This document shows, piece after piece, positions 21,660 to 56,100 of a DNA stretch of 64,000 bases (within the stretch, counting starts at the first letter, position 1; each line of letters begins with the position of its first letter). Under the pieces are notes generated by a model that was not told the DNA's origin, made no database searches, and was given only the letters and a program-made list of their open reading frames with translations. Position numbers and translations under genes: made by a program. Where the stretch lies: positions 135,059 to 199,058 of the forward strand of contig CAYTED010000001.1 of assembly GCA_964436855.1 (NCBI GenBank). Direction: 5' to 3'. The DNA comes from an uncultured Bdellovibrionales bacterium. Lineage in GTDB: Bacteria > Patescibacteriota > Minisyncoccia > Moranbacterales > UBA1568.

Positions 21660-22655
21660 TCAACCGATAAAAAACCCGATCAAACAAAGAAACGCGAACA
21701 GCTCTTGCAATACAACGGTTCCTCGACTGACGGTAAAAAACGCGTTTTGTTCCGTCCGATCAACTCGCTCGAAAACACTTTTTCCGAGCCACACCGCAAG
21801 TGGCAAAGAGAGAAAAACGAGCCCGCACCACAAGGGAAGAGTACGCAAGAAGATACCAAACAAAAAAATTACATACGCCAAAAGAAGTGTCGTCATATAA
21901 ACCCACGCCGACACATGCGACCCCAAGCGAACAACCACAGTCCGCTTGCTCGCAGCCGAGTCGGCAAAGCGATCCGGGACTTCATTGATAAGAAGAATAT
22001 TCATCGTCAAAAGCCCCAAGGGAAGTGCTACAAACCAAATATCCGAACCCCACTCACCCGCCTGCAAAAGATACGCACCCCCGACAACGAGCGGGCCGAA
22101 AGCAATCGCCACCGCGAGCTCTCCAAATCCCCGATACGCAAACGCTACCGGACGAGTCGTATAAAAAAACCCGAGCCCGACGCCCAAAACACCAAGCCAC
22201 AGCCACTCCCACCTCCCCGAGATCTGCACAAAAGTAATCCCCGCAGTACAGGCGATCCCAAAACACAGAAGAGCAGCGAGTAAAACCGATTGAGGCGCGA
22301 GCTCCCCTTTTTGTATCACCCGACTTCCTCCATTAAAAACCGTAAACACACTATTTGCTTCATCATTCCCCGAAAGATGATCAAAATAATCATTGGCAAT
22401 ATTGGCTCCCAAGTGTGCCGCAGAGACAATGACGATCCCGAAGAAAAACGCATTCCAGTCAAACAATCTCGATTGCGAAAAAGCAAATGCCGCACCAACA
22501 ATCGCCGAAAGAATCGTCACACTCAAAAACGGAAGTCGACACACCCGCATCCACGCAGAAAAAGATGAGGAAAACGAATGAACCCGATCGGATGACCGCA
22601 TAAAGACCATAGATGAGATGCCAAAATGCACTTCTCCAGTATACGATGTTTTCAA
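21660..22655 (-). CDS. UbiA-family aromatic prenyltransferase (MenA-like)
   Basis: Polytopic membrane protein with NDYFDHLSGND (the NDxxDxxxD Mg-binding motif). Confidence 0.6.
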   Translation of the reverse strand: MKTSYTGEVHFGISSMVFMRSSDRVHSFSSSFSAWMRVCRLPFLSVTILSAIVGAAFAFSQSRLFDWNAFFFGIVIVSAAHLGANIANDYFDHLSGNDEANSVFTVFNGGSRVIQKGELAPQSVLLAALLCFGIACTAGITFVQISGRWEWLWLGVLGVGLGFFYTTRPVAFAYRGFGELAVAIAFGPLVVGGAYLLQAGEWGSDIWFVALPLGLLTMNILLINEVPDRFADSAASKRTVVVRLGSHVSAWVYMTTLLLAYVIFLFGIFLRTLPLWCGLVFLSLPLAVWLGKSVFERVDRTEQNAFFTVSRGTVVLQELFAFLCLIGFFIG

Positions 22656-27519: not shown

Positions 27520-30372
27520 TCAATTTCCGCCCCGTTTCGCAAGTAGAGCCTCAAAAACCTCCGGAAAATCCTCAAAAACCTTCCCGAGATGAAGCGTTTG
27601 TCCGGAACGGATTTTTGCAAGATCTCCGCTTGTGATCCCATATTCCCGAGCCAGTGTTTCTTTTGGAAGTTCAGAAAGTCGACTAACAGTATTCTCAACA
27701 AGCGTATTTAACTCTCCGGTGGTTATTCCCTCAAATCGTGAATCGGAAAGCATCATCTCTTTCAACCCCTTCCAGACCGATCCGCCAGAAGATACTTTGT
27801 ATTCATACGACACCGTATCAATCGCACTCGATACATCCGGAATGGTCGTCGGAGAGGTAATTTCTCCAACCGCCAATCGCGACCCTAATGCCGGTTCTGA
27901 AAACGAAGCGGGCTCGAGTCCAAGCGATTGTCGAAGAGACACTACCGCATCATCAAGCGATCGTAAAAAACTCTCGATTTTCGGAAACTCAAAATCGATC
28001 CGATCAAGCGCTGGTTTTACAATACCATCGGAAAAAAGCGCGCCCGCATACGAAAACGCGCCGGCGGTGAGCGCGCCAAGGGATGTTTTTTGCACAATAT
28101 GCAGCCATTTTGCGCGATCTATTCGATGTTTTCTTGTATCAAGCACCGAAGATACCCGGTCCGAAAGCGCCTTGCTTACCGATTGATTTCCGCTCGAGAG
28201 AATCACTTCCGCCCTCGAAAGTTCCTGCAAAAGTGAAAGTTGTCGCAAAAACTGCTCATCCCCATCACCAAAAGCAATCAATCCATCCACGAGTTTCCTC
28301 CGAGTATAATCCACCCGCGCCCGCAAACGCTCCCGCATATCTCCATGCAATCGCTCAAGCACCTTTGAATCCAAAAGAGACTTGTCTTCCCCGGCACTCT
28401 TGGAAACCTTCCGTCGAGCCGCCTCGGCACGAAATTTCATTTTCCGAAAAAGCGGGCTTTCCTTATCAATACTGAATTCTTTCTCGATAATTTTTCGTTC
28501 ATCTTCGAGTTTTCTGATCAGCGACTCGACAGAAACAAAATTTTTCTCATACTTTTTGGTTTCTTTTTCAGATCGCACTTTCCCTCCATATCGGGTTTCT
28601 ACGGCATTTTCCTTGAGTTGTTGATTTGCCCGCATACCGGAAAAAATCGCCCCGCATACCGCCGGAGCGGCAATCCAGCCAAGCGTCTCCTTCACCACGG
28701 ATCGCGCAAGGATACCAAAAGCAAAGTATCCCGCATGTTCACCAAAAACACCCGTCGAAATCCGTCGCCACAAACTTGGATTTTTCGACGCATAAAATCT
28801 CCGCTCAAGCTCGGAATCTTCCCCGACCATTCGTCGAAGCTCAATTTGCGTATCCGTTTCATTGATTGCCACCAAAACATCTTTCAGATCAATACCCGTC
28901 TCTTTTTTTCGCGCAATCACGGAAGAAAATGACTGGAGGAGTTGATCTCTTGATTTTTCGTATTCCTTCTTGTTCTGTTGATATAATTCCCGATGCTCTG
29001 CGCTCGCATCCGGAAACGACCACTCATACGGAATCTCGGAAAGTTTTCGAGCGGCGGTATTCAATGTTGCCGAAGCATCCCGAACAGCGTCATTGGTTTC
29101 CAGAGAAAATTCTTTTGCGGAGAGAGAAAAAAAATCCACATTGAGTTTCCCAGAAACTCCGAATGACGCATCCGGTCCGTTTTTTGTTTTCTCAAGCAAA
29201 TTTCTCAACACTTCGCCATGGCTTTCCATTCCGGCGCTTCGAAATTCTTGTACCGTAAGGCGTTTTGTTTTTTCCAAACGAGCCGATCGAGAAAACGAAA
29301 GCCAAATGCGCCGAAAAAAACCGTCCGCATTCGATTCTTCTTCCGTGATTTTCCGACGGGATTCGGCATCGAGCCTGCCAAGCGTCGCGTATCGCATATT
29401 TTCAAACAGAAGTCGCTTTTTCCCATCAGAAAGCTTTTGAAATTCCGGAAAAGAAGCGAGTTCTTCTTTTGAAATTCCAAACTCTTTTTGAAAGAACACA
29501 TTCGTCCGCTCGACCTCATTTTTTTGGATTTCGCTCGCATCACTCCGACGTTTTTTCTTATCCAGAGCCGCGAGTCGAGCAGCTTTTTCTTTTCGTTGCT
29601 CGTGCATCAGAAGCAATTTTTTCCGATCAGCCTGTATTGTTTCTTTCAAAGAAGCGCGCTCATCTTCAGAAGCACCCAAGCTCGGCAGACGAGAAAAAAC
29701 TCGCTGCAATAAATTTTGCTTTTGAGAAAACGAGTCTTCCAATTTCTTGAGTCGGCGTTTGTTTGACTCAATGTCATCCATGAGCGAAACAACATCTCGA
29801 TCAATCTGTTCAAGAGAAGACGCGAGCACATGCCGGCCTATGTCTTCGTTTTCTTCCTCCGAAAGAACGCTTTCTCCAGCACCTTCAGCAATATCTTGTT
29901 CCGCTTCCTGAATAATCTCTTCGGGTGTCTGTACTTTTTTCGGTGCTTCCGATTCGTGAGATTCCTCTTCCTCAGGAAAATTGTCATCAACCGTTTTTTC
30001 TTCTATGGGCTCACCGGAAGGCGAGTCATTTATTTCTTGAGCACGCTTCGAAGAACGCTGACGAGAGAGTCCTTGCTGTTTCAGTTCGTTGAACACACGC
30101 TGAACACCCTGAGGAGAAATCATTCCCGAAAGATCATCGAGAGAGACTATCGATTGGCCTGCAGACTCACCCTCACGATGAAAAACCATCGCCTTCACCG
30201 GAACAAGAGGATCTCGTTCATCACGATACACGGAAACATTGTTCCCGCTTTCCTTATCAACAAAAGAAAATAAAACGAGTTTTTCCCGTTTCTGATCTCC
30301 CTCCTGCACATGAGGATCCAAATTTCTCAAACGATGAACCAAATCATCTCTGTCCGGACTTTTTTGTTTCAT
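27520..30372 (-). CDS. Giant (950 aa) charged, coiled-coil-rich protein with predicted internal TM helices; unknown function
   Basis: Long acidic and coiled-coil stretches. Hydrophobic segments HAGYFAFGILARSVV...AAPAVCGAIFSG and TSLGALTAGAFSYAGALF. Weak LysM-like C-terminus (ETLAREYGITSGDLAKIRSGQTLHLG). Confidence 0.5.
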   Translation of the reverse strand: MKQKSPDRDDLVHRLRNLDPHVQEGDQKREKLVLFSFVDKESGNNVSVYRDERDPLVPVKAMVFHREGESAGQSIVSLDDLSGMISPQGVQRVFNELKQQGLSRQRSSKRAQEINDSPSGEPIEEKTVDDNFPEEEESHESEAPKKVQTPEEIIQEAEQDIAEGAGESVLSEEENEDIGRHVLASSLEQIDRDVVSLMDDIESNKRRLKKLEDSFSQKQNLLQRVFSRLPSLGASEDERASLKETIQADRKKLLLMHEQRKEKAARLAALDKKKRRSDASEIQKNEVERTNVFFQKEFGISKEELASFPEFQKLSDGKKRLLFENMRYATLGRLDAESRRKITEEESNADGFFRRIWLSFSRSARLEKTKRLTVQEFRSAGMESHGEVLRNLLEKTKNGPDASFGVSGKLNVDFFSLSAKEFSLETNDAVRDASATLNTAARKLSEIPYEWSFPDASAEHRELYQQNKKEYEKSRDQLLQSFSSVIARKKETGIDLKDVLVAINETDTQIELRRMVGEDSELERRFYASKNPSLWRRISTGVFGEHAGYFAFGILARSVVKETLGWIAAPAVCGAIFSGMRANQQLKENAVETRYGGKVRSEKETKKYEKNFVSVESLIRKLEDERKIIEKEFSIDKESPLFRKMKFRAEAARRKVSKSAGEDKSLLDSKVLERLHGDMRERLRARVDYTRRKLVDGLIAFGDGDEQFLRQLSLLQELSRAEVILSSGNQSVSKALSDRVSSVLDTRKHRIDRAKWLHIVQKTSLGALTAGAFSYAGALFSDGIVKPALDRIDFEFPKIESFLRSLDDAVVSLRQSLGLEPASFSEPALGSRLAVGEITSPTTIPDVSSAIDTVSYEYKVSSGGSVWKGLKEMMLSDSRFEGITTGELNTLVENTVSRLSELPKETLAREYGITSGDLAKIRSGQTLHLGKVFEDFPEVFEALLAKRGGN

Positions 30373-40528: not shown

Positions 40529-41113
40529 TCAATTCACAATTCCCGATTCCTTGTAATCACGCAAGGAAACCGTCGTCTGTATTCGGACATTTCTCGTGGA
40601 AGTCGAACTCTCCTTCACGACAAACACGATAGTCACCCTCCCAACCGCCGCCGGACCCGGTGTCGGGCTCGCCGAAGGAATGACGCTAAAAACCGGAACG
40701 ACATCGCCGGTAGTAACTCTCGTATACGCACCCAAATTCAATACCCCGGTGCAATTATCGCGAAGCGTCTGTGGCGGAACGGCGGCCGGAGGAACTACCG
40801 ATGCCTTTTCAAGAAAATTTCCTCCCGAATTTTTCTTATATTCGATACACTTGTTTTGAGAATAATCAAAAAAACGAACGCGGGTCGTACCTGAACTGAT
40901 AATCGTGCTCGTCCGAAGCTGCTTCGCGATATCGTTTATCGTAAATTGCGCGTTTTCCGTATCTCGTTCGATTCGCTTATTCTCGCGATATGAAAAAATC
41001 CCGGAGCTAAATGTCGACGATGCCGCCATCATCATAAGCGAAAAAACGAAAATAGAAACCATCACCTCGATCATCGAAAGACCGGAAAAAAGTTTTTGTG
41101 AAATTCGTTTCAT
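40529..41113 (-). CDS. Prepilin-type minor pilin/pseudopilin
   Basis: N-terminal KLFSG-LSMIEVMVSIFVF: G at -1, E at +5, then a hydrophobic helix. Confidence 0.6.
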   Translation of the reverse strand: MKRISQKLFSGLSMIEVMVSIFVFSLMMMAASSTFSSGIFSYRENKRIERDTENAQFTINDIAKQLRTSTIISSGTTRVRFFDYSQNKCIEYKKNSGGNFLEKASVVPPAAVPPQTLRDNCTGVLNLGAYTRVTTGDVVPVFSVIPSASPTPGPAAVGRVTIVFVVKESSTSTRNVRIQTTVSLRDYKESGIVN

Positions 41114-41119
41114 ACTCGA

Positions 41120-41788
41120 TTATCTCCACGATTCAAGAACCGCCCGCGAATAGACACATTTGTTACCGGCAGTACACCACGACGCAATCTGTGCGATATT
41201 CGGATCATTGCCGCTATACGAGCCTGGCGCGCCCGGAAACACTCCACTCCCGCCCCACCAGACAATACTCACCACCCTAAAGGCATCGTCCGATTCATCA
41301 AGCGGCGTCCCTTTATCATCCCGCTCAAGATAAATATCTCTTCCAAAGTGCGTTTGCACCGACCGACTCGGACTATAATCAAACTTATAATACCCGTTTA
41401 CAAGGTCAAGTGAAAATTTTCGCAACTCATTATTTTTAGCCGCTCCAAAACAATTTCGCCCCGCCCCGCCCGTAGTATCAAAAGCAGTATCCAAATAATC
41501 AAGATTACAGTTGTCCTTATTGGCAGTCAGAAAATTATTAAAAGCGATAGTTCCCGAAGCGAGATTGTTATCCCTTATATTTCGAACAATCTCCACGCCT
41601 TCCTGCGCCAATTCGGCTGCGACAATCCGATCCCGATCAAATGCCGATTCCCGATAATTCGACGCAAAAAGCGACACGATCGCCGTCAGCCCGACCGATA
41701 TTACAAACGCGGAAATAATCACCTCTCCAAACGAAAATCCCCGAACGGTTTTTTTTCTCAAAAAAAGTTTTCTCTGATGTTCCTTCAT
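41120..41788 (-). CDS. Prepilin-type minor pilin/pseudopilin (start at the internal Met)
   Basis: MKEHQRKLFLRKKTVRG-FSFGEVIISAFVISVGL prepilin signal with E at +5. The listed ORF extends upstream over a repeat element. Confidence 0.55.
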   Translation of the reverse strand: MKEHQRKLFLRKKTVRGFSFGEVIISAFVISVGLTAIVSLFASNYRESAFDRDRIVAAELAQEGVEIVRNIRDNNLASGTIAFNNFLTANKDNCNLDYLDTAFDTTGGAGRNCFGAAKNNELRKFSLDLVNGYYKFDYSPSRSVQTHFGRDIYLERDDKGTPLDESDDAFRVVSIVWWGGSGVFPGAPGSYSGNDPNIAQIASWCTAGNKCVYSRAVLESWR

Positions 41789-41807
41789 CGTATTTTTATT
41801 TTCTTTC

Positions 41808-41970
41808 TTCCTGCTCCCCTGCCCGAGGGGAACTCCCGAGCCTTCGAGAGTGAGGGGTGGGAGCATCTTGAGCGATGCGACCGCTGTATACTCGCTCCGT
41901 TTCATCGGTATTCCTCCTCCCCTTGGAAAGCCTGCCTGCCGGTAGACAGGGGGAGGATCAAGGAGGGGTT
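41808..41970. repeat. Two further copies (c, d) of the GC-rich palindromic repeat family in the pilin 5' region
   Basis: c: CTCCCCTGCCCGAGGGGA...GAGTGAGGGGTGGGAGC. d: CCTCCTCCCCTTGGAAAG...GGGGGAGGATCAAGGAGGGGTT. Both share the CCTCYTCCCCTT ... GAGGGGT ends with the ligA copies. Confidence 0.5.
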
Positions 41971-42061
41971 CTTACTCTCTTCTCTATTATCTAATATCTG
42001 TTATCTGTTTTTTTCTCTTCTCATGATTCCTAATTCCTGCTTCTTGATTTCGCCCAAGACA

Positions 42062-42610
42062 TCACGGACAACTCGTTCCACTGTACTCCTCCACTCGCCC
42101 ACCGGGATAGATACACACGCTCCACACTGAAGATCCTTTCTTCAGGGAAACTCTCGTAGTACTCGCAATAGCAACATTTGCCGCATTCACCATGTCTCCA
42201 CGGGGTACGGTAAAATACAATCCATTAAAACTAAAAGAACCGCTCCTATCCCCAAACACGACCCCATTATTCAAAATAAATGTTCCTGCAATTGCAGTAG
42301 CCATCGTTCCGCAATCAGCACCAGAGCGATACTTATAATACGGAAAAAAAACAGTAGAATCATCTTCAAAGAAAGCGTCAATACCAACCTGACACGTCGG
42401 CTCCGTTGCATGAAATTTTTTCCCTGTCAATGCATAATTCTGCGCCTCACGAACAAGAGAAGCAAACTTTCGCGCCTCCCCCTCTACCTGCTTTGCCTCT
42501 CGCCCGCTCGAAAGCGATACCATGGTCGCGGCGGTCATAATACCGACAATCGCCACCACGATCATCAGCTCAATAAGTGTAAACCCTTTTTTTGCAAAAA
42601 ATTTTTTCAT
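42062..42610 (-). CDS. Type IV pilin (PilA-like)
   Basis: [25 protein letters not shown] is a canonical class III signal plus N-methyl-Phe helix. Two Cys pairs in the C-terminal half. Confidence 0.7.
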   Translation of the reverse strand: MKKFFAKKGFTLIELMIVVAIVGIMTAATMVSLSSGREAKQVEGEARKFASLVREAQNYALTGKKFHATEPTCQVGIDAFFEDDSTVFFPYYKYRSGADCGTMATAIAGTFILNNGVVFGDRSGSFSFNGLYFTVPRGDMVNAANVAIASTTRVSLKKGSSVWSVCIYPGGRVEEYSGTSCP

Positions 42611-42792
42611 TGTGTTTTTTTATTCCCCGCATTCCCTTTCTCTTCACTCCCTATTCTTCATTCATAAATTCCTGATTCATTATTCCTCACCCTCATCTTA
42701 CCAAACCCTCCCCTAATTGACAAAACTCCCGTTTTCCGTTATTCTACTCGCGAAAGTAGTTCCTACAACCCCCCGCTCTATTAGGAGGAATC

Positions 42793-43512
42793 ATGAAGCG
42801 TTCAGTCATGGCGATCACCCTCTGGATGATTGCGACCTTTTCGACGACCATTCCTGCTTCGGCTGGGGTCATCACCACCTTCAACAGCTTCAATGGGACA
42901 ACCAAATCCCTTGGAAGTCCGTCGCGGTTCTCGCTTCAGTCATCGGTCACTTCCTTCGGGAACACGATGACCGACGATGGAACGCTCTTCCGAGAAGTTG
43001 CCGGCGATGCCGATATCGGCGGCGGGCTCTTCGCGAGCCTTCTCACCTTCGACAACCCGATCCACATAAATGCCGAACAACGGCTCGCTATTCGCTTCGG
43101 CTACATGGATAAGCAAAGCGGTCCGGAAAACCCGGACTTCGCCGGGATAACGATCAACAATACCCTTTACCGGATTTTCGGACAAGAGGAGGTTGGTCCG
43201 CTCGGGTTCAGTGGCGTCCTTAATCTCGGGGTTCAATTCCTCGAGAGCGGGTACTTCAATCTCGGACTCGCCTGCATCAACAATGGATTCGTCACCACCT
43301 CTTCGTTTTGTATCTGGAGTGAGGTGGCTATCACCGACACATTCGATGCGACAGCGCCGGGAACGATAAGCCCGATTTCACCGCTCCATGTCGGCACCCC
43401 CGACCTCCCGCCGATTACGCCGGTGCCGGAGCCGGCGACATGGGCGCTCATCGCGCTCGGACTCGTCGGAGTGTTCGGGTTCACCCGGCGCCGGCGAAAC
43501 CTCGCCGAATAA
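42793..43512 (+). CDS. Secreted PEP-CTERM sorting-domain protein
   Basis: Signal peptide (MKRSVMAITLWMIATFSTTIPASA). C-terminal VPEPATWALIALGLVGVFGFTRRRR is a textbook PEP-CTERM (PEP motif, TM helix, Arg cluster). Confidence 0.6.
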   Translation: MKRSVMAITLWMIATFSTTIPASAGVITTFNSFNGTTKSLGSPSRFSLQSSVTSFGNTMTDDGTLFREVAGDADIGGGLFASLLTFDNPIHINAEQRLAIRFGYMDKQSGPENPDFAGITINNTLYRIFGQEEVGPLGFSGVLNLGVQFLESGYFNLGLACINNGFVTTSSFCIWSEVAITDTFDATAPGTISPISPLHVGTPDLPPITPVPEPATWALIALGLVGVFGFTRRRRNLAE

Positions 43513-43558: not shown

Positions 43559-43593
43559 GCCCCGCGCGCTTCGCGCTCGGGGCACTTTTTTTT
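43559..43593 (+). terminator. Rho-independent terminator after the PEP-CTERM gene
   Basis: GCCCCGCGCG-cttc-GCGCTCGGGGC followed by TTTTTTTT. Confidence 0.6.
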
Positions 43594-43608: not shown

Positions 43609-43736
43609 TTTAGGACTTACACGCTTGAGTGAAATTCAAGGCGCGGAGAAAGTGGCGAGCGAGTCGTACTGTCGTTACGACGAGAGAGCCACAGAGGCTC
43701 CGCAACGCAGAAGCTCCCCAAACGCGTAAGTCCTAA
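43609..43736. mobile_element. MITE-like element with 15-bp terminal inverted repeats
   Basis: TTAGGACTTACACGC ... ACGCGTAAGTCCTAA bracket about 100 nt, which also holds an internal hairpin GTCGTA-ctgtcgt-TACGAC. Non-coding. Confidence 0.35.
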
Positions 43737-43801
43737 CTTTATTTACCCAACTCCTCTCACTACACATCAAGTCGCCTCCCCATTCGCTCTCTCTCATAAA
43801 A

Positions 43802-43843
43802 CAAACTAGCACATAACTCGCGGCCGCAAGTTATGTGCTAGTT
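43802..43843. repeat. NotI-containing palindromic hairpin, copy 1 (3' of the PaaX-like gene; terminator-like on the minus strand)
   Basis: AACTAGCACATAACT-cgcggccgca-AGTTATGTGCTAGTT has perfect 15-bp arms. It shares the 26-nt CAAACTAGCACATAACTCGCGGCCGC with copy 2. Confidence 0.6.
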
Positions 43844-44501: not shown

Positions 44502-44574
44502 GCTTACAGATGAGGGAATAATTCGGAAACGCTATAAAGAAATTTCCCTTTTCATTCCATATCACACCTCCATA

Positions 44575-44620
44575 CAAACTAGCACATAACTCGCGGCCGC
44601 GAAATAAAGCTAGTTTGAAT
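44575..44620. repeat. NotI-containing hairpin, copy 2 (between pilD and the PaaX-like gene)
   Basis: CAAACTAGCACATAACTCGCGGCCGC-gaaataaa-GCTAGTTTG. The first 26 nt are identical to copy 1. Confidence 0.6.
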
Positions 44621-44648: not shown

Positions 44649-45449
44649 TCAAAACCATATTCCGTAACTATACGGAAAAATTTTTTCTAAAAAGAGATGC
44701 GCGATAGCTCCGCATACAAGAAATGGTCCGAACGGAACTTTTGTTTTGAGATTCTTTCCCTGAAACAAAACGAGTGCGCCGCCATAAAGAGAACCGATAC
44801 CAAATGCCAGTGTCAGCGAAAAGAGGATATTCGGGATACCGATAGCAAGTCCGATAGCGAGAGCAAGCCATGCATCCCCCCATCCCATCCACGTTTCTTT
44901 GGAGAAAAAAGCGAGCGCCGCAAAAAAACTCCATGCAAGCACCCCTGCTATCACGCCCGATACCGTCCGCTCAAGCGACAAAACCGCTATCATACTCTCC
45001 GATCCGAAAAAATCCAAAAGAAGGAGAAATACAGCGGTCCACACGCCGGCAAACCAGAGAAAGGAAACCGGGATTTCCATTGTCCGAAAATCATACACCG
45101 CGATCGCGACAAAAATCGAAACCAGCCCGAGAATCCATATCGTCTCGATCCATGCGCTCCTGTCAAAAATATCAAAAAAATATTTTCCGGCGAGAAGAAA
45201 AAACGCTCCTGTCAAAAATTCGACCACCGGGTATTGCCACGAGATTTTTCCCCCGCAGTGCCGACACTTTCCGCGCAAAAAAAGAAATGACAGAATCGGA
45301 ATATTGTCGTACCAGCAAATCAACGCCCCGCATTTCGGACACTTCGACCGATCGGATACAAAACTCTCCCCCGCCTCCGTCCGAAGCACGAGCACATTGA
45401 GAAAGCTCCCTACAATACAACCAAGTCCGAAAAAAAAGAAAAAAGTCAT
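44649..45449 (-). CDS. pilD: Prepilin peptidase (A24 family) / N-methyltransferase
   Basis: N-terminal TM, zinc-binding CPKCG...CRHCGG, then a polytopic domain with the conserved Asp pair. Confidence 0.8.
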   Translation of the reverse strand: MTFFFFFGLGCIVGSFLNVLVLRTEAGESFVSDRSKCPKCGALICWYDNIPILSFLFLRGKCRHCGGKISWQYPVVEFLTGAFFLLAGKYFFDIFDRSAWIETIWILGLVSIFVAIAVYDFRTMEIPVSFLWFAGVWTAVFLLLLDFFGSESMIAVLSLERTVSGVIAGVLAWSFFAALAFFSKETWMGWGDAWLALAIGLAIGIPNILFSLTLAFGIGSLYGGALVLFQGKNLKTKVPFGPFLVCGAIAHLFLEKIFPYSYGIWF

Positions 45450-47900: not shown

Positions 47901-47922
47901 CTCATCTATCAACCAAGAAAAC

Positions 47923-48291
47923 CTAGCATCCGGTTGGGAAAACTGTTCCCACTTCCGAATAGGTTGTCCCGGAGCAGGCTGCGGGAACATCAGCTGTTGG
48001 ACTGATTGTTCCATCAAATGTATCCCCGCCGGCACTACACGTTTCATTGAGCACTGCGTACGAAGAAACCTTGGACCCGGTTGGGACCGATACCGTAGTA
48101 CCATCGATAGCAACACTCTCACTACAAGAATTCACAAGCTGTGGAACGATACTCGCCGCCGTCGACTTAAAAGAAGCGGCTGCCGCTTTCTGACGAGCGC
48201 TTGAGAGTGACACAAGCACGATCGAGGCGAGAATACCGATGATCGCGATAACAATCAAGAGCTCAATAAGGGTAAAGCCTTTTTTGTTCAT
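47923..48291 (-). CDS. pilA: Type IV major pilin, copy 1
   Basis: [25 protein letters not shown] prepilin N-terminus. 122 aa with two C-terminal Cys pairs. Confidence 0.8.
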
Positions 48292-48334
48292 AATATATTA
48301 AATTATTACTTAACTTATCCTCACACAAGAAAAC

Positions 48335-48703
48335 CTAGCATCCGGTTGGGAAAACTGTTCCCACTTCCGAATAGGTTGTCCCGGAGCAGGCTGCGGGAAC
48401 ATCAGCTGTTGGACTGATTGTTCCATCAAATGTATCCCCGCCGGCACTACACGTTTCATTGAGCACTGCGTACGAAGAAACCTTGGACCCGGTTGGGACC
48501 GATACCGTAGTACCATCGATAGCAACACTCTCACTACAAGAATTCACAAGCTGTGGAACGATACTCGCCGCCGTCGACTTAAAAGAAGCGGCTGCCGCTT
48601 TCTGACGAGCGCTTGAGAGTGATACAAGCACGATCGAGGCGAGAATACCGATGATCGCGATAACAATGAGAAGTTCGATTAACGTAAACCCTTTTTTATT
48701 CAT
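48335..48703 (-). CDS. pilA: Type IV major pilin, copy 2 (identical protein; start at the internal Met of the listed ORF)
   Basis: Identical 122-aa product. The DNA is identical over the 3' ~330 nt and differs only synonymously near the 5' end. Confidence 0.8.
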
Positions 48704-48767
48704 ATTCTCACCGCCTTTCTGTTTTAGTTTTTTATTCTTTATTTGAGAATTCAATCTCTCTTCCATT

Positions 48768-49976
48768 TTAGAACTGCGCCGTAATATTGTAAATAGGCAT
48801 AAGAACACCGACCACGAGAATCGCCACACCGATACCGAGAATCACAATGAGAACCGGCTCGATCAGTGATGTCAGGTTTCGCGTCATCACTTCCACTTCC
48901 TGCGTATAAAAATCCGACACGCTTTTCAAGACATTCACTGTCGATCCGGTTTCTTCGCCAATCTTCACCATCTGCGTCACCATCGGAGGAATAATGGGTG
49001 ATGCCGCAAACACCCGACTCATCGACCCTCCCGTACGAACCTCCCCGGCCGCCCGGTCGATTACCTCGCGATACACATGACTCCCGACAACATTTCCCAC
49101 TACATCGAGCGCGCGAACAATCGGGATACCCCCATGAAGAAGCGCCCCGAGATTTTCCGCGAAGCGAATAAGGTACATTCGACTCGCGATCGCTCCGACA
49201 ACCGGGATTTTCAAAGTTATTTCTTCAAGATCGTTTTTACCCGCCGGAGTTCGAAGATAATAAATAATACCGCCGACCACTCCAAGAACACCGATCAACA
49301 CCGCGCCCCAATAATGACTCATAAAGTCTCCGATCCACATCAAAACCTTGGTATACCATGGAACCGCAATTTTCATATCAATAATAATCTGTGTAATTTT
49401 CGGCAAAATAAAGGTAATGACGAGAAATCCGATAATCCCCGCGACAAGAATGACAAAACCGGGATAGAAAAAGGCGCCCTTAATTTTCGATGTCAAATGA
49501 TAATTCTTCTCAATATTGTCAGCGACAAATTTAATTGAACGCTGAAGCCCTCCGGACATTTCTCCGGCCTTTACCATATTGACTACAAGCGGCGAAAACA
49601 CATCCGGATGCCGCTCAAGCGTCTCGGAAAAAGGCATTCCGTCGTCAATATCGTCGCGCATTTCCTGAATAACCACCCGAAGATAATCGTTATCGATCTG
49701 TTCGGCGATCGCGTCAAGCGAACTGGTAACCGGAACTTTCGCCTCAATCAAAACCGAGAGCTGCCGAAAAAACATCGCGAGCTCTTGCGGTTTTACGCCT
49801 TCCCAGAGCTTCTGAAGTTGATGCATCAGAGGAATATTTTTCTTTTCCCCTTCAATCGAAAGCACGATAAGACCGTTTTTCTGAAGAATTTCAGCCGCAA
49901 ACTCCTCGTTGATCGCCTCAACGAATCCTTCACGCACCTCTCCGAGTTCTGTTTTCGCTTTAAAAAAGAATTTCAT
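48768..49976 (-). CDS. pilC: Type IV pilus assembly platform protein PilC (GspF family)
   Basis: Two GspF repeats, each with three TM helices; 402 aa. Confidence 0.85.
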
Positions 49977-49996
49977 ACTGTTATTGAAACATCATT

Positions 49997-51082
49997 TCAT
50001 ATCCCGGCCTTTCCGACGAGCATTCGGAAATATTCTTGGCTCTTCGCGTATCGATACGCATCTTCCATAGAGACAACCCCGCGCCGAGCAAGATCCGCAA
50101 GCGCTCGGTCAAGCGATACCATTCCTTCTTTCATACCCGTTTCAATCACCGAGTCGATCTGGTAAATCTTGTTCTCGCGGATAAGATTTTCCACCGCGTG
50201 ATTTTTAAACATAAGTTCGACTGCCGGCGCTCGTCCGCCCCCGATCATCGGGAGAAGTCGCTGCGAAATAACTCCGAGAAGCGTACTTGCAAGCTGCGCG
50301 CGAATTTGATTCTGTTGATTTGGCGGAAAAACATCGATAATACGATCGATTGTTTGCGCGCTATCGTTCGTATGAAGTGTCGCAAAAATAAGATGCCCTG
50401 TTTCCGCGGCCGTCATCGCGGTTGCAATCGTCTCGAGATCGCGAAGCTCTCCAAGAAGCACCACATTCACATCCTCGCGAAACACCGCCTTGAGCGCGTC
50501 AGAAAATGATTTCGCATCGCGTCCAACCTCGCGCTGGTTGATAATCGACCGATCCTGAACATACACAAACTCGATCGGATCCTCAATCGTCAAAATATGC
50601 TTCTCCTGATTGCGATTGATATAGTCGATAATGGCCGCGAGCGTGGTCGACTTCCCGTGTCCGACCGGCCCGGTTACCAATACCAACCCTTGCGAATAAT
50701 TTGAAAAATCATAGAGAGCCGTTGGTATATTCAATTCCTCAAGATTGCGAAGACGCTCCATCAGGAAACGCATCGTAATACTCACATATCCGCGCTGAAA
50801 GAAAATATTACAACGAAACCGCGCCCGATCCTCAAAATTATAGGAGAAATCGACATGCCCTTTCTCCATAAGAATTTTCTTTTGTTCTTCGGTCAGGAGC
50901 GTGTTTGAAAACGCAAGCGTATCGGCAGGCGTGAGAATTTTCTCTTTCGTAACCGGACGCAACCCCCCATCCACGCGAAGTGTCGGATATCGGCCCACGG
51001 TAAAATGAAGATCTGACGCCTTCTCCTGACCCACCAGAAGAAGAAGATTTTTCAGGCGTTGTTCAATGTGTGCTGCTTCCAT
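49997..51082 (-). CDS. pilT: Twitching-motility retraction ATPase PilT
   Basis: VLVTGPVGHGKSTTLAAII Walker A; Asp box, His box and AIRNLIRE-like motifs. Confidence 0.85.
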   Translation of the reverse strand: MEAAHIEQRLKNLLLLVGQEKASDLHFTVGRYPTLRVDGGLRPVTKEKILTPADTLAFSNTLLTEEQKKILMEKGHVDFSYNFEDRARFRCNIFFQRGYVSITMRFLMERLRNLEELNIPTALYDFSNYSQGLVLVTGPVGHGKSTTLAAIIDYINRNQEKHILTIEDPIEFVYVQDRSIINQREVGRDAKSFSDALKAVFREDVNVVLLGELRDLETIATAMTAAETGHLIFATLHTNDSAQTIDRIIDVFPPNQQNQIRAQLASTLLGVISQRLLPMIGGGRAPAVELMFKNHAVENLIRENKIYQIDSVIETGMKEGMVSLDRALADLARRGVVSMEDAYRYAKSQEYFRMLVGKAGI

Positions 51083-51192
51083 AAAATACTGTTTTGTTTG
51101 TATTTTTTTCTTCCCCTGTCCTCCGGACTGCTTTCACCGAAACCTCTCCAATCATAAGAAAATTGAGACCATAAGGAAAGTATCGACACCAA

Positions 51193-51621
51193 TCACTTTG
51201 GATCCGAAAAATATCCCGCCACCTTGTCAACCACTTCCGAGGGCGTAAAATGCGACTTGATCAGATAGTCCTTCGCTCCATATTTGAACGCATCTTCCAC
51301 CTGCTGCTTTTCAGAAATATTCGTGAGAAGAATCACCGGAATATTTTTCCACCCCTCCGTCTCCGACATTTTTTTCAAAACCTCGCGCCCATCCATATAC
51401 GGCATCACGATATCAAGCAACATAAGATCCGGTCGCACCCCCTCTTCGAGATGCTTGATCGCCTCGAGTCCGTTACTCGCCGAAATCACCTCATAGCCGG
51501 CATCGTCAAGTTTCACATGATAGATATCGGCAATAAACGGATCATCTTCGACGAGGAAAATTTTCTTCTTCCCCATTGCAAGATCGTCGGTCGTTTCAAT
51601 CATACTCTTTAATTCATACAT
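51193..51621 (-). CDS. Stand-alone CheY-like response-regulator receiver domain (PilH/PilG-like). The start may be the internal Met at 51576.
   Basis: KIFLVEDDPFIADIY...DLMLLDIVMPYMDGREVL...ILLTNISEKQ. The phospho-acceptor Asp and the conserved Lys (KYGAKDYLIKS) are present. Confidence 0.7.
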   Translation of the reverse strand: MYELKSMIETTDDLAMGKKKIFLVEDDPFIADIYHVKLDDAGYEVISASNGLEAIKHLEEGVRPDLMLLDIVMPYMDGREVLKKMSETEGWKNIPVILLTNISEKQQVEDAFKYGAKDYLIKSHFTPSEVVDKVAGYFSDPK

Positions 51622-51671
51622 TCACTCTCTCTATTATGACGAGAGTTTGAAAAAAATTCAAATTCCGCACA

Positions 51672-53441
51672 TTACACCGCTTGCTGCTCAACGGAAGCCG
51701 CTTCGGAGGCGACCCCTTCCGGAGCAGCTTCTTTCGAAGACGTTTCCTCCGGAGAGAGATTTGCCTCTTCCTCGAGAAAAATATTCCCCTCGGTTACCCG
51801 CTCCACTTCCATGAGTGTCGTTAGGCCGGCCATTGATTTCAAAATCCCATCCTGTCGCATGGTTACTATCTTTTGATTCGGCAATATTTTTTCGATTTCG
51901 ATTTCCGATCCCTGCTTGTCCGTAATCACCGCTTTGATTTCATCCGTCACATCAATCACTTCAATAATAGCGACACGCCCTTTATATCCGGTTCCATTGC
52001 ACGCCTCACAGCCCTTCCCGCGATACACAAGAATCGAATCGAGGTTGTCATCAATATCGTATTTCGGAAATTCCTCCTTTGGAACGGAGGAAAGTTCTTG
52101 TCGAATATCTTCCACCACTTGCGAAGAGAGTTCCATCACCTCTTTACATTCCTCGCAAATTCTCCGGACCAATCGCTGCGCGGCAACCGCCTGAATCGAC
52201 GATGCCAGAAGAAACGGTTCCACGCTCATATCGATCAGTCGAGGAATCGTTCCAAGCGCGCTATTCGTGTGGAGTGTCGAGAGCACCAAATGCCCCGTAA
52301 GCGCCGCATGAATAGCAAGCTCCGCCGTTTCGTTATCTCGGATTTCCCCCACCATAATCACATTCGGATCCTGACGAAGAATTGAACGGAGCCCGCTTGC
52401 AAAGGTGTATCCGATTTCCGGTTTGATCTGACTCTGATTCACACCATCGATATAATATTCAACCGGATCTTCGAGAGTGATAATATTCCGTTCTTCCTGA
52501 TTGAGAATTTTTAGGAACGAATAAAGCGATGTGGATTTTCCCGAACCCGTCGGACCGGTGATCAGAATAATTCCAAACGGTTCGCGAATTTTTTTGAGCA
52601 AAATTTCCTGTGCGCGACCCCAAATACCCATTTCGTGAAAATCCGTCGCGGTATCGGTCTTTTCGAGTAAACGCATAACCACCTTTTCCCCTTCCATCAC
52701 CGGAAGCGTCGACACACGGAGGTCGATAATACGCCCACTTTGCTCCGTACGAAACCGGCCGTCCTGCGGCTTGCGTTTCTCATCAATTTTCAACGCGGAA
52801 AGAATTTTGATACGAGATACGACCGCGCGTCCTACATCGATCGGAAACACGAGCGAGGAGTGCAATACGCCATCGACACGAAACCGGACCCGATAATTTC
52901 CCTCGACCGGCTCGATATGAACATCGCTCGCCTTGCCATCAAGCGCGTGTTTGATAATCACTTCCACCAATTTCGCAATCGGCGCATCCTTGAAAAGTTC
53001 CCGATCTTTTTCCGAAATTTTGTCGATTTTTTTTTCTCCCGAATCGACGTCGTCCTTCCCTTTAATCGAAAGAATCGCTTCTTTCAGAGCATCATCCGCT
53101 ACCGTGTACCGTTTTACGATATCCTGAAACGTCCCTTCGGAGGCGAGATACGTATCGATACTCAAATTTTCCTTTTCCGAAAGAAATCGAAGTACATTGA
53201 GCGCATCAAAATCCTGTGGATCAACCATAGCAACCGAAAGAACGTCATCCTTTCGTTCGAATGCGGCCATTTTGTATTTTTCCGCGCTCTCCTGTGGAAT
53301 AAATTCCAAAACCGTTCGAGAAATTTCCCGCGGAGCAACCTCGAGAAACGGGATTCCGAGGCGAGTCGCCTTTTCTCGAACCGAAGAAGCTCCGTCCGCG
53401 GCGTCTTTCGCCGGAGACGTTCTTTTCGCGCTGCGAACCAT
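51672..53441 (-). CDS. pilB: Type IV pilus assembly ATPase PilB (GspE family)
   Basis: N-terminal GSPII_E_N domain, ILITGPTGSGKSTSL Walker A, tetracysteine zinc motif (CEECKEV...CEACNGTG). Confidence 0.85.
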   Translation of the reverse strand: MVRSAKRTSPAKDAADGASSVREKATRLGIPFLEVAPREISRTVLEFIPQESAEKYKMAAFERKDDVLSVAMVDPQDFDALNVLRFLSEKENLSIDTYLASEGTFQDIVKRYTVADDALKEAILSIKGKDDVDSGEKKIDKISEKDRELFKDAPIAKLVEVIIKHALDGKASDVHIEPVEGNYRVRFRVDGVLHSSLVFPIDVGRAVVSRIKILSALKIDEKRKPQDGRFRTEQSGRIIDLRVSTLPVMEGEKVVMRLLEKTDTATDFHEMGIWGRAQEILLKKIREPFGIILITGPTGSGKSTSLYSFLKILNQEERNIITLEDPVEYYIDGVNQSQIKPEIGYTFASGLRSILRQDPNVIMVGEIRDNETAELAIHAALTGHLVLSTLHTNSALGTIPRLIDMSVEPFLLASSIQAVAAQRLVRRICEECKEVMELSSQVVEDIRQELSSVPKEEFPKYDIDDNLDSILVYRGKGCEACNGTGYKGRVAIIEVIDVTDEIKAVITDKQGSEIEIEKILPNQKIVTMRQDGILKSMAGLTTLMEVERVTEGNIFLEEEANLSPEETSSKEAAPEGVASEAASVEQQAV

Positions 53442-53457
53442 AAAGAAGAAGCATTAT

Positions 53458-54282
53458 TTAGAGAAACGGATTCTCCCGTCCATTGGTTGACTTTTCTATC
53501 TCCGGAAGATTTGCTTTCTTTTGAATCATTTCAAGTCCGGAAAAATCCATCATGGATTTCCCAAAAACATCAAGCAAATAGGCGTTTTTCACATTCATCG
53601 GCGATCGATAGTACCGGAATCCGATCGTCATCTCCCCAATCAAAATATCTTCGTTATCAGATGAAGACGCGGCGGCGTTTTTATCATTCGAATTTTCTTT
53701 CTCTTTCTTTTTTATGGAAAAGGATTGAATCTCACTCTCCCGATCCATCTTGTATACCGATTCGAGAAAATTCTGAATACCCGCATACGAACCCACGACA
53801 CTGACATGCGCGGAGTACCTCATCGGCGATGGAAATTCCGGCGCGAGAAGAGTCTGATCGTCGGTATTCGCGGCGGAACCGGCGGCAAAAATCGCCGATG
53901 CGCTCGTCGGGACATTCGGATCAGACACAGCAGCAGTATTTGAATTCATCGACAAGGAAATGGCTGTCAGCGATACCCCCGACTGCCGACTCAAATAATT
54001 GAAAGAGTCGATCACGCGATCCTGATCAAGCGCGTCCGGAAAGTATCGTTCCATAATACCTCCCGCGTTTTCTTCGTTTTGAAAAGACGCTATGACGGAT
54101 TTAATATTTCCCGCGCGACTCTTCACCTGATCCAAATTTCCCCGCAAGGTGCTAATCTCCGTCCGCGCAACGAGAATACTCGCCACTGTCGGCTTAATAT
54201 ACGCAAGTATAATAACAAGCGTCATAATGAGAGCGAACGGGAAAAAAAGAATTTTCAGGCTCATAGATTTTATTGATAACAA
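53458..54282 (-). CDS. PilO-like membrane protein (TM plus coiled coil); assignment by position
   Basis: N-terminal TM (ILFFPFALIMTLVIILAYI) then a coiled coil. Lies between pilN-like and pilB. Confidence 0.35.
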   Translation of the reverse strand: MLSIKSMSLKILFFPFALIMTLVIILAYIKPTVASILVARTEISTLRGNLDQVKSRAGNIKSVIASFQNEENAGGIMERYFPDALDQDRVIDSFNYLSRQSGVSLTAISLSMNSNTAAVSDPNVPTSASAIFAAGSAANTDDQTLLAPEFPSPMRYSAHVSVVGSYAGIQNFLESVYKMDRESEIQSFSIKKKEKENSNDKNAAASSSDNEDILIGEMTIGFRYYRSPMNVKNAYLLDVFGKSMMDFSGLEMIQKKANLPEIEKSTNGRENPFL

Positions 54283-54302
54283 TCACTTACAAACTGAAAA
54301 AT

Positions 54303-54866
54303 TTACCGTTTCGCCTCGGCATTCGATGCGACTCGCTCCATATCGAACACAAAATCAACCGTTCCATCTTTTCCGAGCGAAAGATTGCCCGTCGACACAT
54401 TCAGAAAATTTTTCGACTGCTTGAAAATGTGCATCTGTTCGGCGACATTACGAAACTCCTGCGCCTTCCCAGTAATATGCACCGTATTCTTCTCAAAACT
54501 GTTTTCATATGTCCCAAGCTTCACCTCCGGAATGACCTCCGCGGAAAGAACGGCAAGCTCACTTTTCGGATTGATATCGGGAATGGATCGCTTGGCAACC
54601 ACTTCTTTGGTTTTCACAAAGAAACGAGCGGCACCCTGAATATCCTCTCCCCCGTAGCTCACGCGCTTTTCTTCATCGATCTGCAAAACCAAAGAAGTCT
54701 TCGTTTTTTCGAGACTTTGCAAATAAAAATACACTCCGCCGTAGGAGCCTCCGGCAAGGACCAGAAGAATGAAGGCAATATAAATACTTTTGTCAGCAAA
54801 ACTCGCCCGCGGCTTCAGTTTTTCTTCCGCCACTTTCGCCGACTGTGAAAGATTGATTCCCGGCAT
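54303..54866 (-). CDS. PilN-like membrane protein (start at the internal Met)
   Basis: Short cytoplasmic N-terminus, one TM (IYIAFILLVLAGGSYGGVYFYL), periplasmic domain. Lies immediately downstream of pilM. Confidence 0.35.
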   Translation of the reverse strand: MPGINLSQSAKVAEEKLKPRASFADKSIYIAFILLVLAGGSYGGVYFYLQSLEKTKTSLVLQIDEEKRVSYGGEDIQGAARFFVKTKEVVAKRSIPDINPKSELAVLSAEVIPEVKLGTYENSFEKNTVHITGKAQEFRNVAEQMHIFKQSKNFLNVSTGNLSLGKDGTVDFVFDMERVASNAEAKR

Positions 54867-55026
54867 ATGTTTGTTCTCTTTTTTTCTTTTGATGTTTCTT
54901 TCAAGAAAAAGTATACCACAACTCTCCCATCCGTATCCAGTACGCAAACCCTATCGCTATTCTTCTTTCATTTCCCCCTCAATTTCTTTATCGCTCATTG
55001 TCAAAGATCCGTTATCCGATATTCAA

Positions 55027-56100
55027 TTATTTCTCCTTATCGATTCCCTGCACACCGCCGAGCGCGAGTCCGATCGCCACCGAAAACGATGTTCCCATCT
55101 TTTCCACCATCGGGCGAAGCTTTTCGCTCACCTCCACATTTTTCCACGGATCGCCCCGCTCGACGGAAACACCGAGCGTTTTCGAGAAATATTCCGGAAG
55201 ACCGACAAATTGCGACGAACCTCCGGAAAGAAAGACTTTCTTCACGCTTGATTTCCCTTCCTCTTTCTCGCTGTACGCCTGAACAATCCGTTGGATTTCC
55301 GTTCCGATAACATCGATCGAGGGAAATGTCAGCCCTCCTTCGCCATCCGCAAGAAAGTTTTGTCCGCTCCGTTTCAATTCTTCCGCACGAGCAAACGCGA
55401 TATTCATTCCCTCCGAAAGTGTCCGCGTTATGTCTTTTCCTCCGATCGCGATATTGCGACTCAATTGCACCAAACCATCCTCGATAAGAAGAATATTCGT
55501 CGCGCGAAATCCGATATCGGCGATAATGTGCGCACCGGATTCCTTCCCGACAATGGCGCGCGCCAAAGGAAACGTCTCGAGTTCAAGAAATTTCAGATGA
55601 AGCTTTGCGTCGGCTGCATATTTATTGTATCGGTTAATCTCCTTGTTGAGCGCCGCCACGAGCAAGACTTCGATCTTGCCGACCTTTGCCCCGTCCGGAG
55701 CGGTCACCTCTCGCCTCTTCACAATCTCCCAACTCAACGACACTTCTTCGAGCGCGGAAGGGATATATTTGTGCGCCTCAAACTGAATCGCTTCTTCCAA
55801 TTCTTTGTCTTGCAGATTCGGAAGTTCGATCAGTGTAACCAGACCAACGAAAGCCGGGAGTGCCATATACGCCTCGCGCTTCTCCGGTCTCATTCGTTCG
55901 AGGAGCGCTTTCAAGTAGAGTGTTTCCTCGTCATCGTACGAATGATCCTGATGCACTCGACCCTCCTCAATATTCGAAAGACTCACTTCGGCATAATTAA
56001 CAAGCTTCGCCAGACCGCCGCTTTTCGGTTCAAGCTCGATCGCCTTGATAGACGATGTTCCGAAATCAATCCCGAGAAAAGTTTCCTTTCCAAACAACAT
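55027..56100 (-). CDS. pilM: Type IV pilus assembly protein PilM (actin-like ATPase)
   Basis: FLGIDFGTSSIKAIEL phosphate-1 motif and FtsA/PilM-like length. Confidence 0.8.
   Translation of the reverse strand: MLFGKETFLGIDFGTSSIKAIELEPKSGGLAKLVNYAEVSLSNIEEGRVHQDHSYDDEETLYLKALLERMRPEKREAYMALPAFVGLVTLIELPNLQDKELEEAIQFEAHKYIPSALEEVSLSWEIVKRREVTAPDGAKVGKIEVLLVAALNKEINRYNKYAADAKLHLKFLELETFPLARAIVGKESGAHIIADIGFRATNILLIEDGLVQLSRNIAIGGKDITRTLSEGMNIAFARAEELKRSGQNFLADGEGGLTFPSIDVIGTEIQRIVQAYSEKEEGKSSVKKVFLSGGSSQFVGLPEYFSKTLGVSVERGDPWKNVEVSEKLRPMVEKMGTSFSVAIGLALGGVQGIDKEK

Follow-up and report, generated by a model that had tools for sequence, protein, structure and literature searches.

The PEP-CTERM/exosortase system (EpsH, XrtA/B) has been described as confined to bacteria with an outer membrane (PMC1569441; bioRxiv 10.1101/2023.06.07.544157). 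Classical systems have a median of 8 targets per genome, and the target genes are typically single-gene operons located behind large intergenic regions (PMC1569441). This report concerns a gene encoding a PEP-CTERM protein in a 64,000-nucleotide stretch of contig CAYTED010000001.1 (positions 135,059 to 199,058; hereafter the window, in whose own numbering positions are given). The gene lies inside a type IV pilus locus of a bacterium of the candidate phyla radiation (CPR). Its product has the tripartite tail, the signal peptide and the non-enzymatic body of low homology known from the PEP-CTERM/exosortase system, and the gene is likewise a single-gene operon with a large intergenic region (PMC1569441). 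It differs from that system in its host, which is a CPR bacterium without a known outer membrane, in having no exosortase nearby and no exopolysaccharide (EPS) locus, in the single target per locus, in its position within a type IV pilus locus and in its sigma-70-like upstream site. The PEP-CTERM domain itself is known, and the NCBI pipeline labels some members of the family described here 'PEP-CTERM sorting domain-containing protein', so that the domain match was already on record. What is new is a PEP-CTERM family in the CPR that is lineage-restricted, embedded in a pilus locus and shuffled by recombination.

Three other described systems resemble parts of this arrangement. In Haloferax volcanii, ArtA processes the tripartite PGF-CTERM tail in a single-membrane cell, and the processed protein becomes lipid-anchored (PMC6098224; PMC11980579). 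By analogy, PGF-CTERM/ArtA would be the most plausible model for the function of a PEP tail in a CPR cell, although the motif here is PEP rather than PGF, the organism is a bacterium rather than an archaeon, and in Haloferax the enzyme is known. PepA (NF033554) of Zoogloea resiniphila is, as far as the work of Gao et al. (2018) is related in bioRxiv 10.1101/2023.06.07.544157, a flocculation-associated PEP-CTERM matrix protein of ~260 aa from a diderm with an exosortase. The protein in the window is of similar size and has the same layout of signal peptide, body and PEP-CTERM tail. P0068 (at 26-248 of 256), P0100 and P0102 match the PepA model over most of their length, with scores far below its cut-off of 80 (31.5 bits for P0068, the best member; 26.2 and 22.6 bits for the others). 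In Saccharibacteria, lectin-like jelly-roll or propeller domains on minor pilins bind the host, and additional close-range adhesins have been proposed (PMC11623550). As with PilX1/PilX2 of TM7x, a beta-jelly-roll or other lectin-like module implicated in the binding of host glycans is encoded with minor pilins in a CPR pilus locus (PMC11623550). In PilX1/PilX2 that module is fused to a class III pilin and borne on the pilus, whereas here it stands as a protein of its own that is exported by Sec, carries a sorting tail at the C-terminus and lacks a prepilin motif.

Strain-level swaps of pilin-linked surface genes between conserved flanks are also familiar from Pseudomonas aeruginosa, in the form of pilin allele islands with accessory genes (pilA groups with tfpO/tfpW-Z). 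The P. aeruginosa islands resemble the window in having a strain-specific GT-C glycosyltransferase beside the major pilins. No accessory gene in these islands is known to encode a PEP-CTERM tail, and the organism is a diderm with a secretin. A literature search found no paper that ties PEP-CTERM, exosortase or archaeosortase to CPR, Patescibacteria, Parcubacteria or Moranbacteria. The pilus linkage, hypervariability and lineage conflict of a PEP-CTERM family were found in no paper searched.

The open reading frame (ORF) is present exactly as a first-pass annotation of the window had described it, and an identical copy of the protein occurs in one NCBI contig and one Logan contig. That annotation had called the C-terminus a canonical PEP-CTERM sorting signal, which the domain models bear out. 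The final 29 residues are VPEPATWALIALGLVGVFGFTRRRRNLAE, the ORF ending in ...TPVPEPATWALIALGLVGVFGFTRRRRNLAE, and the tail scores 29.8 bits against Pfam PF07589 (gathering score 20.7; aa 210-235 of 239) and 26.2 bits against NCBIfam TIGR02595 (cut-off 16; aa 211-235). The layout has the three parts expected of a family member, VPEP-ATWALIALGLVGVFGFT-RRRR: the PEP motif (P212-E213-P214, codons 43426-43434) abuts a hydrophobic helix, and a basic cluster follows. A C-terminal helix was modelled by AlphaFold2 (AF2) at residues 214-238. The Pro-Glu-Pro sequence is invariant in 24/24 aligned family members, which argues that the tail match is not due to chance. All remote members retrieved retain the motif too, while the transmembrane residues vary among the 24. 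The PEP motif of this family is under purifying selection, and the tail is confirmed as a bona fide PEP-CTERM domain with every sequence-level feature of such domains.

The family is small. A word-indexed search covered 5.8 billion protein clusters and an exhaustive HMMER search covered 1.84 billion representatives. When the protein alone served as query in the former, it retrieved itself and one relative with 48% identity. Homologs of the neighbouring pilin led to more distant relatives, which are PEP-CTERM genes of ~250 aa in the same slot, and a profile built from 4 members recovered ~25 full-length members. This puts the size of the family at ~25 sequences in ~15 billion proteins. The HMMER search gave 2,216 matches, of which ~15 clusters were similar over their full length and the remainder matched in the tail only. 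A scan of genome contigs with the protein yielded tail-only matches, in diderms alone (Sphingomonas, Verrucomicrobia, Burkholderiales), and a body-only hidden Markov model (HMM) had 0 matches among the 5,663 ORFs of 80 loci from that scan. Metagenome-contig scans with the family alignment, made in two sequence orders, returned no match.

The only named members of the family are annotated as 'PEP-CTERM sorting domain-containing protein' of Candidatus Moraniibacteriota / Moranbacteria. Named homologs of the PilV-like pilin in the same locus come from Candidatus Moranbacteria, 'Candidatus Pa...' and 'Patescibacteria group bacterium', and Moraniibacteriota is classified by NCBI within the Parcubacteria group of Patescibacteria (CPR). 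Because the named homologs of both proteins are from Moranbacteria or Patescibacteria, the CPR-like lineage suggested by the first-pass annotation is supported. [quoted passage not shown] From the lineage and the secretin-less pilus locus, we infer a single-membrane envelope.

Nine distinct loci were recovered from Logan, ENA, JGI and NCBI assemblies (the window, L082, L083, L085, L086, L087, L088/L089, L090 and L093/L094). In each, a homolog of the PEP-CTERM gene occupies the same slot on the opposite strand, although the pilus and housekeeping genes around it have diverged to 64-86% identity. Wherever the context is visible, the layout consists of minus-strand minor pilins, the divergent PEP-CTERM gene, in some loci a PaaX-like gene, the prepilin peptidase and the other pilus genes. 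CPR genes are found on both sides in the window, L083, L085, L086, L087, L088, L090 and L093. L090 and L093 hold remote members of the family (body-only E-values 7e-14 and 7e-5). Within a subclade of Candidatus Moranbacteria, the PEP-CTERM gene thus belongs to the type IV pilus locus as a conserved accessory gene.

Despite this conserved position, the PEP-CTERM protein is the most divergent protein in every locus comparison. Its identity is 30-38%, compared with 66-81% for PilD, ~78% for PilB, ~86% for PilT, ~70% for PilC, ~64% for LigA and 38-57% for the minor pilins. The window was also compared with a strain-level relative, L082, by nucleotide identity in 100-bp bins. The two are 99-100% identical over ligA and two minor pilin genes, and the intergenic region is 96-97% identical up to ~42690. 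From ~42700 to 43390, the body of the gene falls to 42-57% nucleotide identity and is essentially unalignable, while the tail-coding region stands at 93%. The identity boundaries are sharp (42771/42772 and 43392/43393, with the match resuming at 43393). Point mutation cannot give such a contrast, and the body has therefore been replaced by recombination between conserved flanks. A second divergent island lies in the GspH-like pilin, which shares 85% of its amino acids with L082 and whose globular part is 61-83% identical in nucleotides at 42191-42490. Such allele swapping is commonly seen in phage targets and in exposed determinants of recognition or adhesion. A diversity-generating retroelement was considered as a source of the variability and rejected: the whole body diverges, and the locus has no reverse transcriptase or template repeat.

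The protein begins with a Sec-type signal peptide (MKRSVMAITLWMIATFSTTIPASA, followed by GV), called by eye from the sequence. A22 and A24 of its AxA cleavage site are nearly invariant across the family, and residues 2-16 form the signal helix in the AF2 model. This model, run with the family alignment, has a mean predicted local distance difference test score (pLDDT) of 77.4 and a predicted TM-score of 0.67. Residues 25-198 are folded as an all-beta sandwich, and pLDDT drops below 50 in the linker at residues 204-212. When the body was compared with the PDB by Foldseek, the matches were MAM domains, CBM4/6/11/27/35, PP2 phloem lectin and the ligand-binding domain of ephrin receptors (E 2e-5 to 1e-3), with no enzyme fold among them. 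The body accordingly models as a jelly-roll of the binding-module class (CBM/MAM/lectin-like). C161 and C173 are invariant in 24/24 aligned members, as are a few positions occupied by Gly, Asp, Asn or Ser. The two cysteines would form an extracytoplasmic disulfide, and the presence of DsbB in the window fits. The DsbB gene (20385-20921, minus strand) lies close to that of a MenA-like prenyltransferase (21660-22655, minus strand), a pairing indicative of quinone-linked disulfide formation outside the cytoplasm in a CPR bacterium.

No class III signal was found in the protein (GFxxxE; PF07963/TIGR02532), which gave no N_methyl match even at E <= 10. Against NF038129, it scores 30.7 bits (cut-off 65) with the tail alone aligned, and against the PepA model NF033554 it scores 17.5 bits (cut-off 80) in its C-terminal part alone; it is a member of neither. 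The body belongs to no curated family.

The gene has the signals of a well-formed single-gene unit, namely a promoter-like site, a Shine-Dalgarno AGGAGG, a signal peptide and a terminator (Table 1). The placement of AGGAGG favours the 239-aa start over the 234-aa start used by NCBI (P0001). The promoter candidate sits in the 182-bp divergent intergenic region that the gene has in common with the minor-pilin operon. Inspection of the upstream sequence revealed no proteobacterial-type sigma-54 promoter motif, and such a promoter was rejected. An Rfam scan of the intergenic DNA flanking the gene gave nothing credible. From ~23.8 kb to 56.1 kb, it is the sole credible plus-strand gene, in keeping with its earlier description as the only one in a minus-strand pilus block.

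Table 1. Features of the PEP-CTERM gene and its surroundings, in window coordinates.
Feature	Position	Strand	Details
PEP-CTERM protein gene	42793..43512	+	239 aa + stop codon
Sigma-70-like promoter candidate, TTGACA-17-TATTCT	42717..42745	+	consensus match only, 10/12
Shine-Dalgarno AGGAGG	42783..42788	+	4 nt before ATG 42793
Sec-type signal peptide, aa 1-24	42793..42864	+	cleavage between ...IPASA and GV; by inspection of sequence
Predicted beta-jelly-roll ectodomain, aa 25-198, hypervariable body	42865..43386	+	AF2 model, Foldseek
Pro-rich linker/stalk, aa 199-210, HVGTPDLPPITP	43387..43422	+	AF2 disorder
PEP-CTERM sorting domain	43423..43509	+	VPEP motif, transmembrane helix, RRRR cluster
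Intrinsic-terminator-like hairpin and T-run	~43560..43592	+	stem 43568-43583, then TTTTTTTT
127-bp element	43610..43736	none	18-bp terminal inverted repeats TTAGGACTTACACGCTTG / TTAGGACTTACGCGTTTG
Third minor pilin, 194 aa	40529..41113	-	weak N_methyl and ComGF matches
PilV-like minor pilin, 261 aa	41120..41905	-	TIGR02523, weak
GspH/FimU-like minor pilin	42062..42610	-	N_methyl and TIGR01708 matches
PaaX_M/Cas2-like protein, 213 aa	43860..44501	-	bracketed by 27-nt direct repeat
Prepilin peptidase PilD, A24 family	44649..45449	-	PF06750 110 bits, PF01478 38.5 bits
PMT_2 GT-C glycosyltransferase, polytopic, 786 aa	45466..47826	-	PF13231 30.1 bits
Core type IV pilus genes	47923..56100	-	2 near-identical major pilins, PilC, PilT, response regulator, PilB, PilO, PilN, PilM

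The best explanation of these observations is that the gene encodes a lectin-like surface protein which is exported through Sec, acts together with the pilus and has a tail that is read by a sorting enzyme; taken as a whole, this explanation has about an even chance of being right. After Sec export, the mature protein of ~215 residues would comprise a disulfide-stabilised jelly-roll, a short Pro-rich stalk and the PEP-CTERM tail, and would become exposed at the surface. The ectodomain would act as a strain-variable binding module. Whole alleles of it are exchanged by homologous recombination; the breakpoints fall in the conserved sequences upstream and in the tail-coding region, and the neighbouring minor pilin varies along with the swap. 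The role proposed for the module is to bind, at close range and beside the pilus, a ligand of the host or matrix (probably a glycan) during episymbiotic attachment. Cooperation with the pilus is suggested by the parallel to PilX1/PilX2 and to the postulated close-range adhesins of Saccharibacteria (PMC11623550). That Pro-Glu-Pro never varies implies recognition of the tail by a sorting enzyme in the membrane. If it acts as exosortase and archaeosortase do, this enzyme would cut off the tail and anchor the protein anew on an acceptor in the envelope, and it would be encoded outside the locus. A fuller version of this proposal, in which a divergent exosortase or archaeosortase, or an unrelated protease, transfers a strain-variable, lectin-like protein to the outer envelope of a single-membrane CPR cell, there to determine host specificity together with the type IV pilus, is offered tentatively and is itself unlikely.

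Several observations weigh against a sorted surface protein. Exosortases are polytopic membrane proteins, and Pfam and NCBIfam models of exosortase or archaeosortase found none among the polytopic ORFs of the window, all of which were scanned at E <= 0.01 and, where they had no firm family, again at E <= 10. These ORFs are DsbB, MenA/UbiA, PilD, PilC, the PMT_2 glycosyltransferase and a DUF5656-like protein (sub-threshold). Likewise, the Pfam annotation of up to 10 kb of flanking DNA per related locus includes no exosortase. A scan of the window by regular expression and by a tail HMM derived from the family identified a single PEP-CTERM tail, that of this gene. Exactly one such tail per locus was found in 155,685 bp of CPR DNA, against the classical median of targets per genome. 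The stalk, at ~12-25 residues, would hold the unprocessed protein close to the membrane, so that surface exposure hinges on the proposed processing step. The Foldseek matches are generic (TM-score 0.3-0.5, identity 9-17%) and therefore do not fix the type of ligand. Co-regulation with the divergent minor-pilin operon is plausible, the basis for it being the arrangement of the genes.

Among the membrane and secreted proteins of the window that were scanned, no sortase, rhomboid or CPBP family was found either. The prepilin peptidase next door was considered as the tail-processing enzyme. Prepilin peptidases act on class III signals, which are N-terminal, and they cut on the cytoplasmic side. 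The candidate was rejected for this wrong topology, its adjacency being the sole support.

The lack of an exosortase in the window and in the flanking DNA of the related loci and the single PEP-CTERM protein per locus are what would be expected if the tail were a mere C-terminal membrane anchor. The protein would then be a type I protein tethered to the cytoplasmic membrane that no enzyme processes, and its PEP motif would be a relic or a structural element such as a helix cap at the membrane interface. There is a precedent in Chlorobium tepidum, which has two PEP-CTERM proteins and no EpsH (Haft et al., PMC1569441). However, a relic motif would be expected to decay over the divergence seen in this family, in which PEP is fixed in all aligned and remote members while the body is at ~30% identity and the transmembrane residues are free to vary. 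Poor exposure on so short a stalk is also hard to square with allele replacement at the strain level. Tail processing would resolve this geometry, since a protein held close to the membrane fits poorly with the diversifying pattern. An anchor without an enzyme is thus somewhat unlikely.

A second alternative takes the protein to be a structural accessory of the pilus. It would be a glycan- or peptidoglycan-binding module that anchors or guides a secretin-less pilus through the wall and co-evolves with the minor pilin. The locus has indeed the neighbours that the first-pass annotation had reported, pilins and a prepilin peptidase without a secretin. The prepilin peptidase matches PF06750 and PF01478, and the pilus genes form a full PilMNO-PilB-PilT-PilC set (PilM, 55027-56100, and PilB, 51672-53441, both on the minus strand). 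No secretin was found among the pilus genes or any large ORF of the window, nor in the pilus loci of L083 and L086, in which the order of the core pilus genes is the same. The GspH/FimU-like minor pilin is transcribed divergently from the PEP-CTERM gene, the third minor pilin (40529-41113) is syntenic in all loci compared, and the prepilin peptidase adjoins the PEP-CTERM gene in 6 loci, with or without the PaaX-like gene in between. That the gene is strictly linked over 9 loci both to the minor-pilin operon and to the prepilin peptidase, that the fold is CBM-like and that the adjacent GspH-like pilin varies jointly with it between strains would all suit a structural role. On the other hand, the genes of the machine itself (PilB, PilT, PilC, PilD) are conserved, whereas the PEP-CTERM gene varies more than any other and is exchanged as a whole between strains. 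Most other CPR were not found to have a family member in their pilus loci, and this includes the more distant Moranbacteria in which PilV-like homologs occur; the family is therefore no general requirement of the pilus. A structural accessory is accordingly quite improbable.

The first-pass annotation had also proposed that the gene was inserted, being flanked by an element resembling a miniature inverted-repeat transposable element (MITE) and by repeat hairpins. A recent foreign insertion through a mobile element, perhaps from a diderm donor, would explain the opposite strand and the 127-bp element bounded by terminal inverted repeats that lies downstream. It would also explain the composition, a point the annotation had wanted checked: the PEP-CTERM gene indeed ranks first among 54 window genes both for GC (57.5% vs 46.9%) and for GC at third codon positions (GC3; 0.70 vs 0.48, z = 3.0). 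The GC3 excess is found in the orthologs of 7/8 other loci as well. It is therefore a property of the family rather than a mark of recent import, and it may have arisen, among other possibilities, through GC-biased gene conversion at a hot spot of recombination. The MITE-like element stood up to analysis. It has one copy in the window and a DNA fold z of -3.06, its 18-bp terminal inverted repeats have 0 matches expected by chance, and it is 98% conserved in L082. A Logan contig of the same organism stops inside it (at 43654) and the L082 contig stops at its edge, which suggests that it is a multi-copy MITE-like repeat elsewhere in the genome. The flanking hairpins did not: the repeated hairpin (43801-43843 / 44574-44602) brackets the PaaX-like gene and not the PEP-CTERM gene, and nothing repeat-like occurs upstream of the latter.

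With repeats on one side only, and with the same slot and orientation kept in nine diverged loci, a recent insertion is refuted. The 127-bp element is moreover missing from more distant loci that still carry the gene. Insertion by a mobile element is thus very unlikely. An older event may be considered, as a tail-free profile of the body weakly detects a few non-core PEP-CTERM proteins such as P0233, whose tail is of the PEPxxWA-CTERM type and scores above the cut-off of that model. Going by these weak matches, the whole gene may have originated long ago in a diderm. A diderm fragment misjoined to a CPR contig by assembly or binning could account for the atypical composition and for the breaks of two Logan assemblies ~140-220 bp downstream of the gene, but linkage to CPR pilin, ligA and ribosomal-protein genes recurs in independent assemblies, samples and assemblers, so that a chimeric contig is ruled out and an artefact of this kind has a negligible chance of being the explanation.

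The PaaX_M/Cas2-like gene has its own pattern of presence. Copies of the 27-nt direct repeat lie on either side of it (43801-43827 and 44574-44600), and the first of these copies forms a hairpin with a 20-bp stem (43801-43843). The window, L086, L087 and L090 carry the gene, and L083, L085 and L088 lack it. With this patchy distribution, it behaves as an optional, possibly mobile, regulator module.

Other parts of the pilus locus vary as well. The PMT_2 protein, located between the major pilins and the prepilin peptidase, has ~16 transmembrane segments, and its PMT_2 match is confined to aa 320-426. It has no ortholog in any related locus, where an ORF of ~120 aa is found instead. It is a candidate strain-specific glycosyltransferase for the pilins or the PEP-CTERM protein. 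A tandem duplication of 300 nt with 99% identity (47909-48208 and 48321-48620) yields the two near-identical major-pilin genes (47923-48291 and 48335-48829), each of which has an N_methyl motif. In L082, the PilV-like gene, one ORF in the window, is broken into pieces of 222 + 41 aa. DNA that is otherwise 99-100% identical is interrupted by two short islands of 71-74% identity (window 41691-41990, L082 2148-2330). Beyond the minor pilins, the window also carries ligA, gatCA and secE-nusG-L11-L1.

Three further observations were made elsewhere in the window. An ORF of 950 aa (27520-30372, minus strand) among nucleotide-metabolism genes matches no Pfam family even at E <= 1 and is a large orphan. 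A VirD4/TraG-like coupling ATPase with a treble-clef zinc finger (12508-14538, minus strand) is encoded beside a 430-aa orphan membrane protein (14539-15831, minus strand); the pair may be a remnant or variant of a module for DNA transfer or DNA uptake. The genes of two Clp-type AAA+ chaperone paralogs, one on each strand (6665-9280, minus; 56260-58725, plus), have in common a 234-nt stretch with 71% complementarity (inverted repeat I1).

A conserved PEP-CTERM family restricted to the CPR breaks the rule that such proteins occur only in bacteria with an outer membrane. It implies either an exosortase-type enzyme in a single-membrane envelope, as is the case for archaeosortase, or a new way of reading the signal. 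Host choice and host binding by environmental CPR bacteria are almost entirely unexplored, to our knowledge. A protein that is swapped between strains otherwise 99-100% identical is a candidate determinant of host specificity or phage evasion, and its gene offers a marker for strain typing in metagenomes. If the protein is indeed lectin-like and sorted by an enzyme, PEP-CTERM sorting would extend beyond diderms, and the gene would be a candidate host-range gene for uncultured episymbionts.

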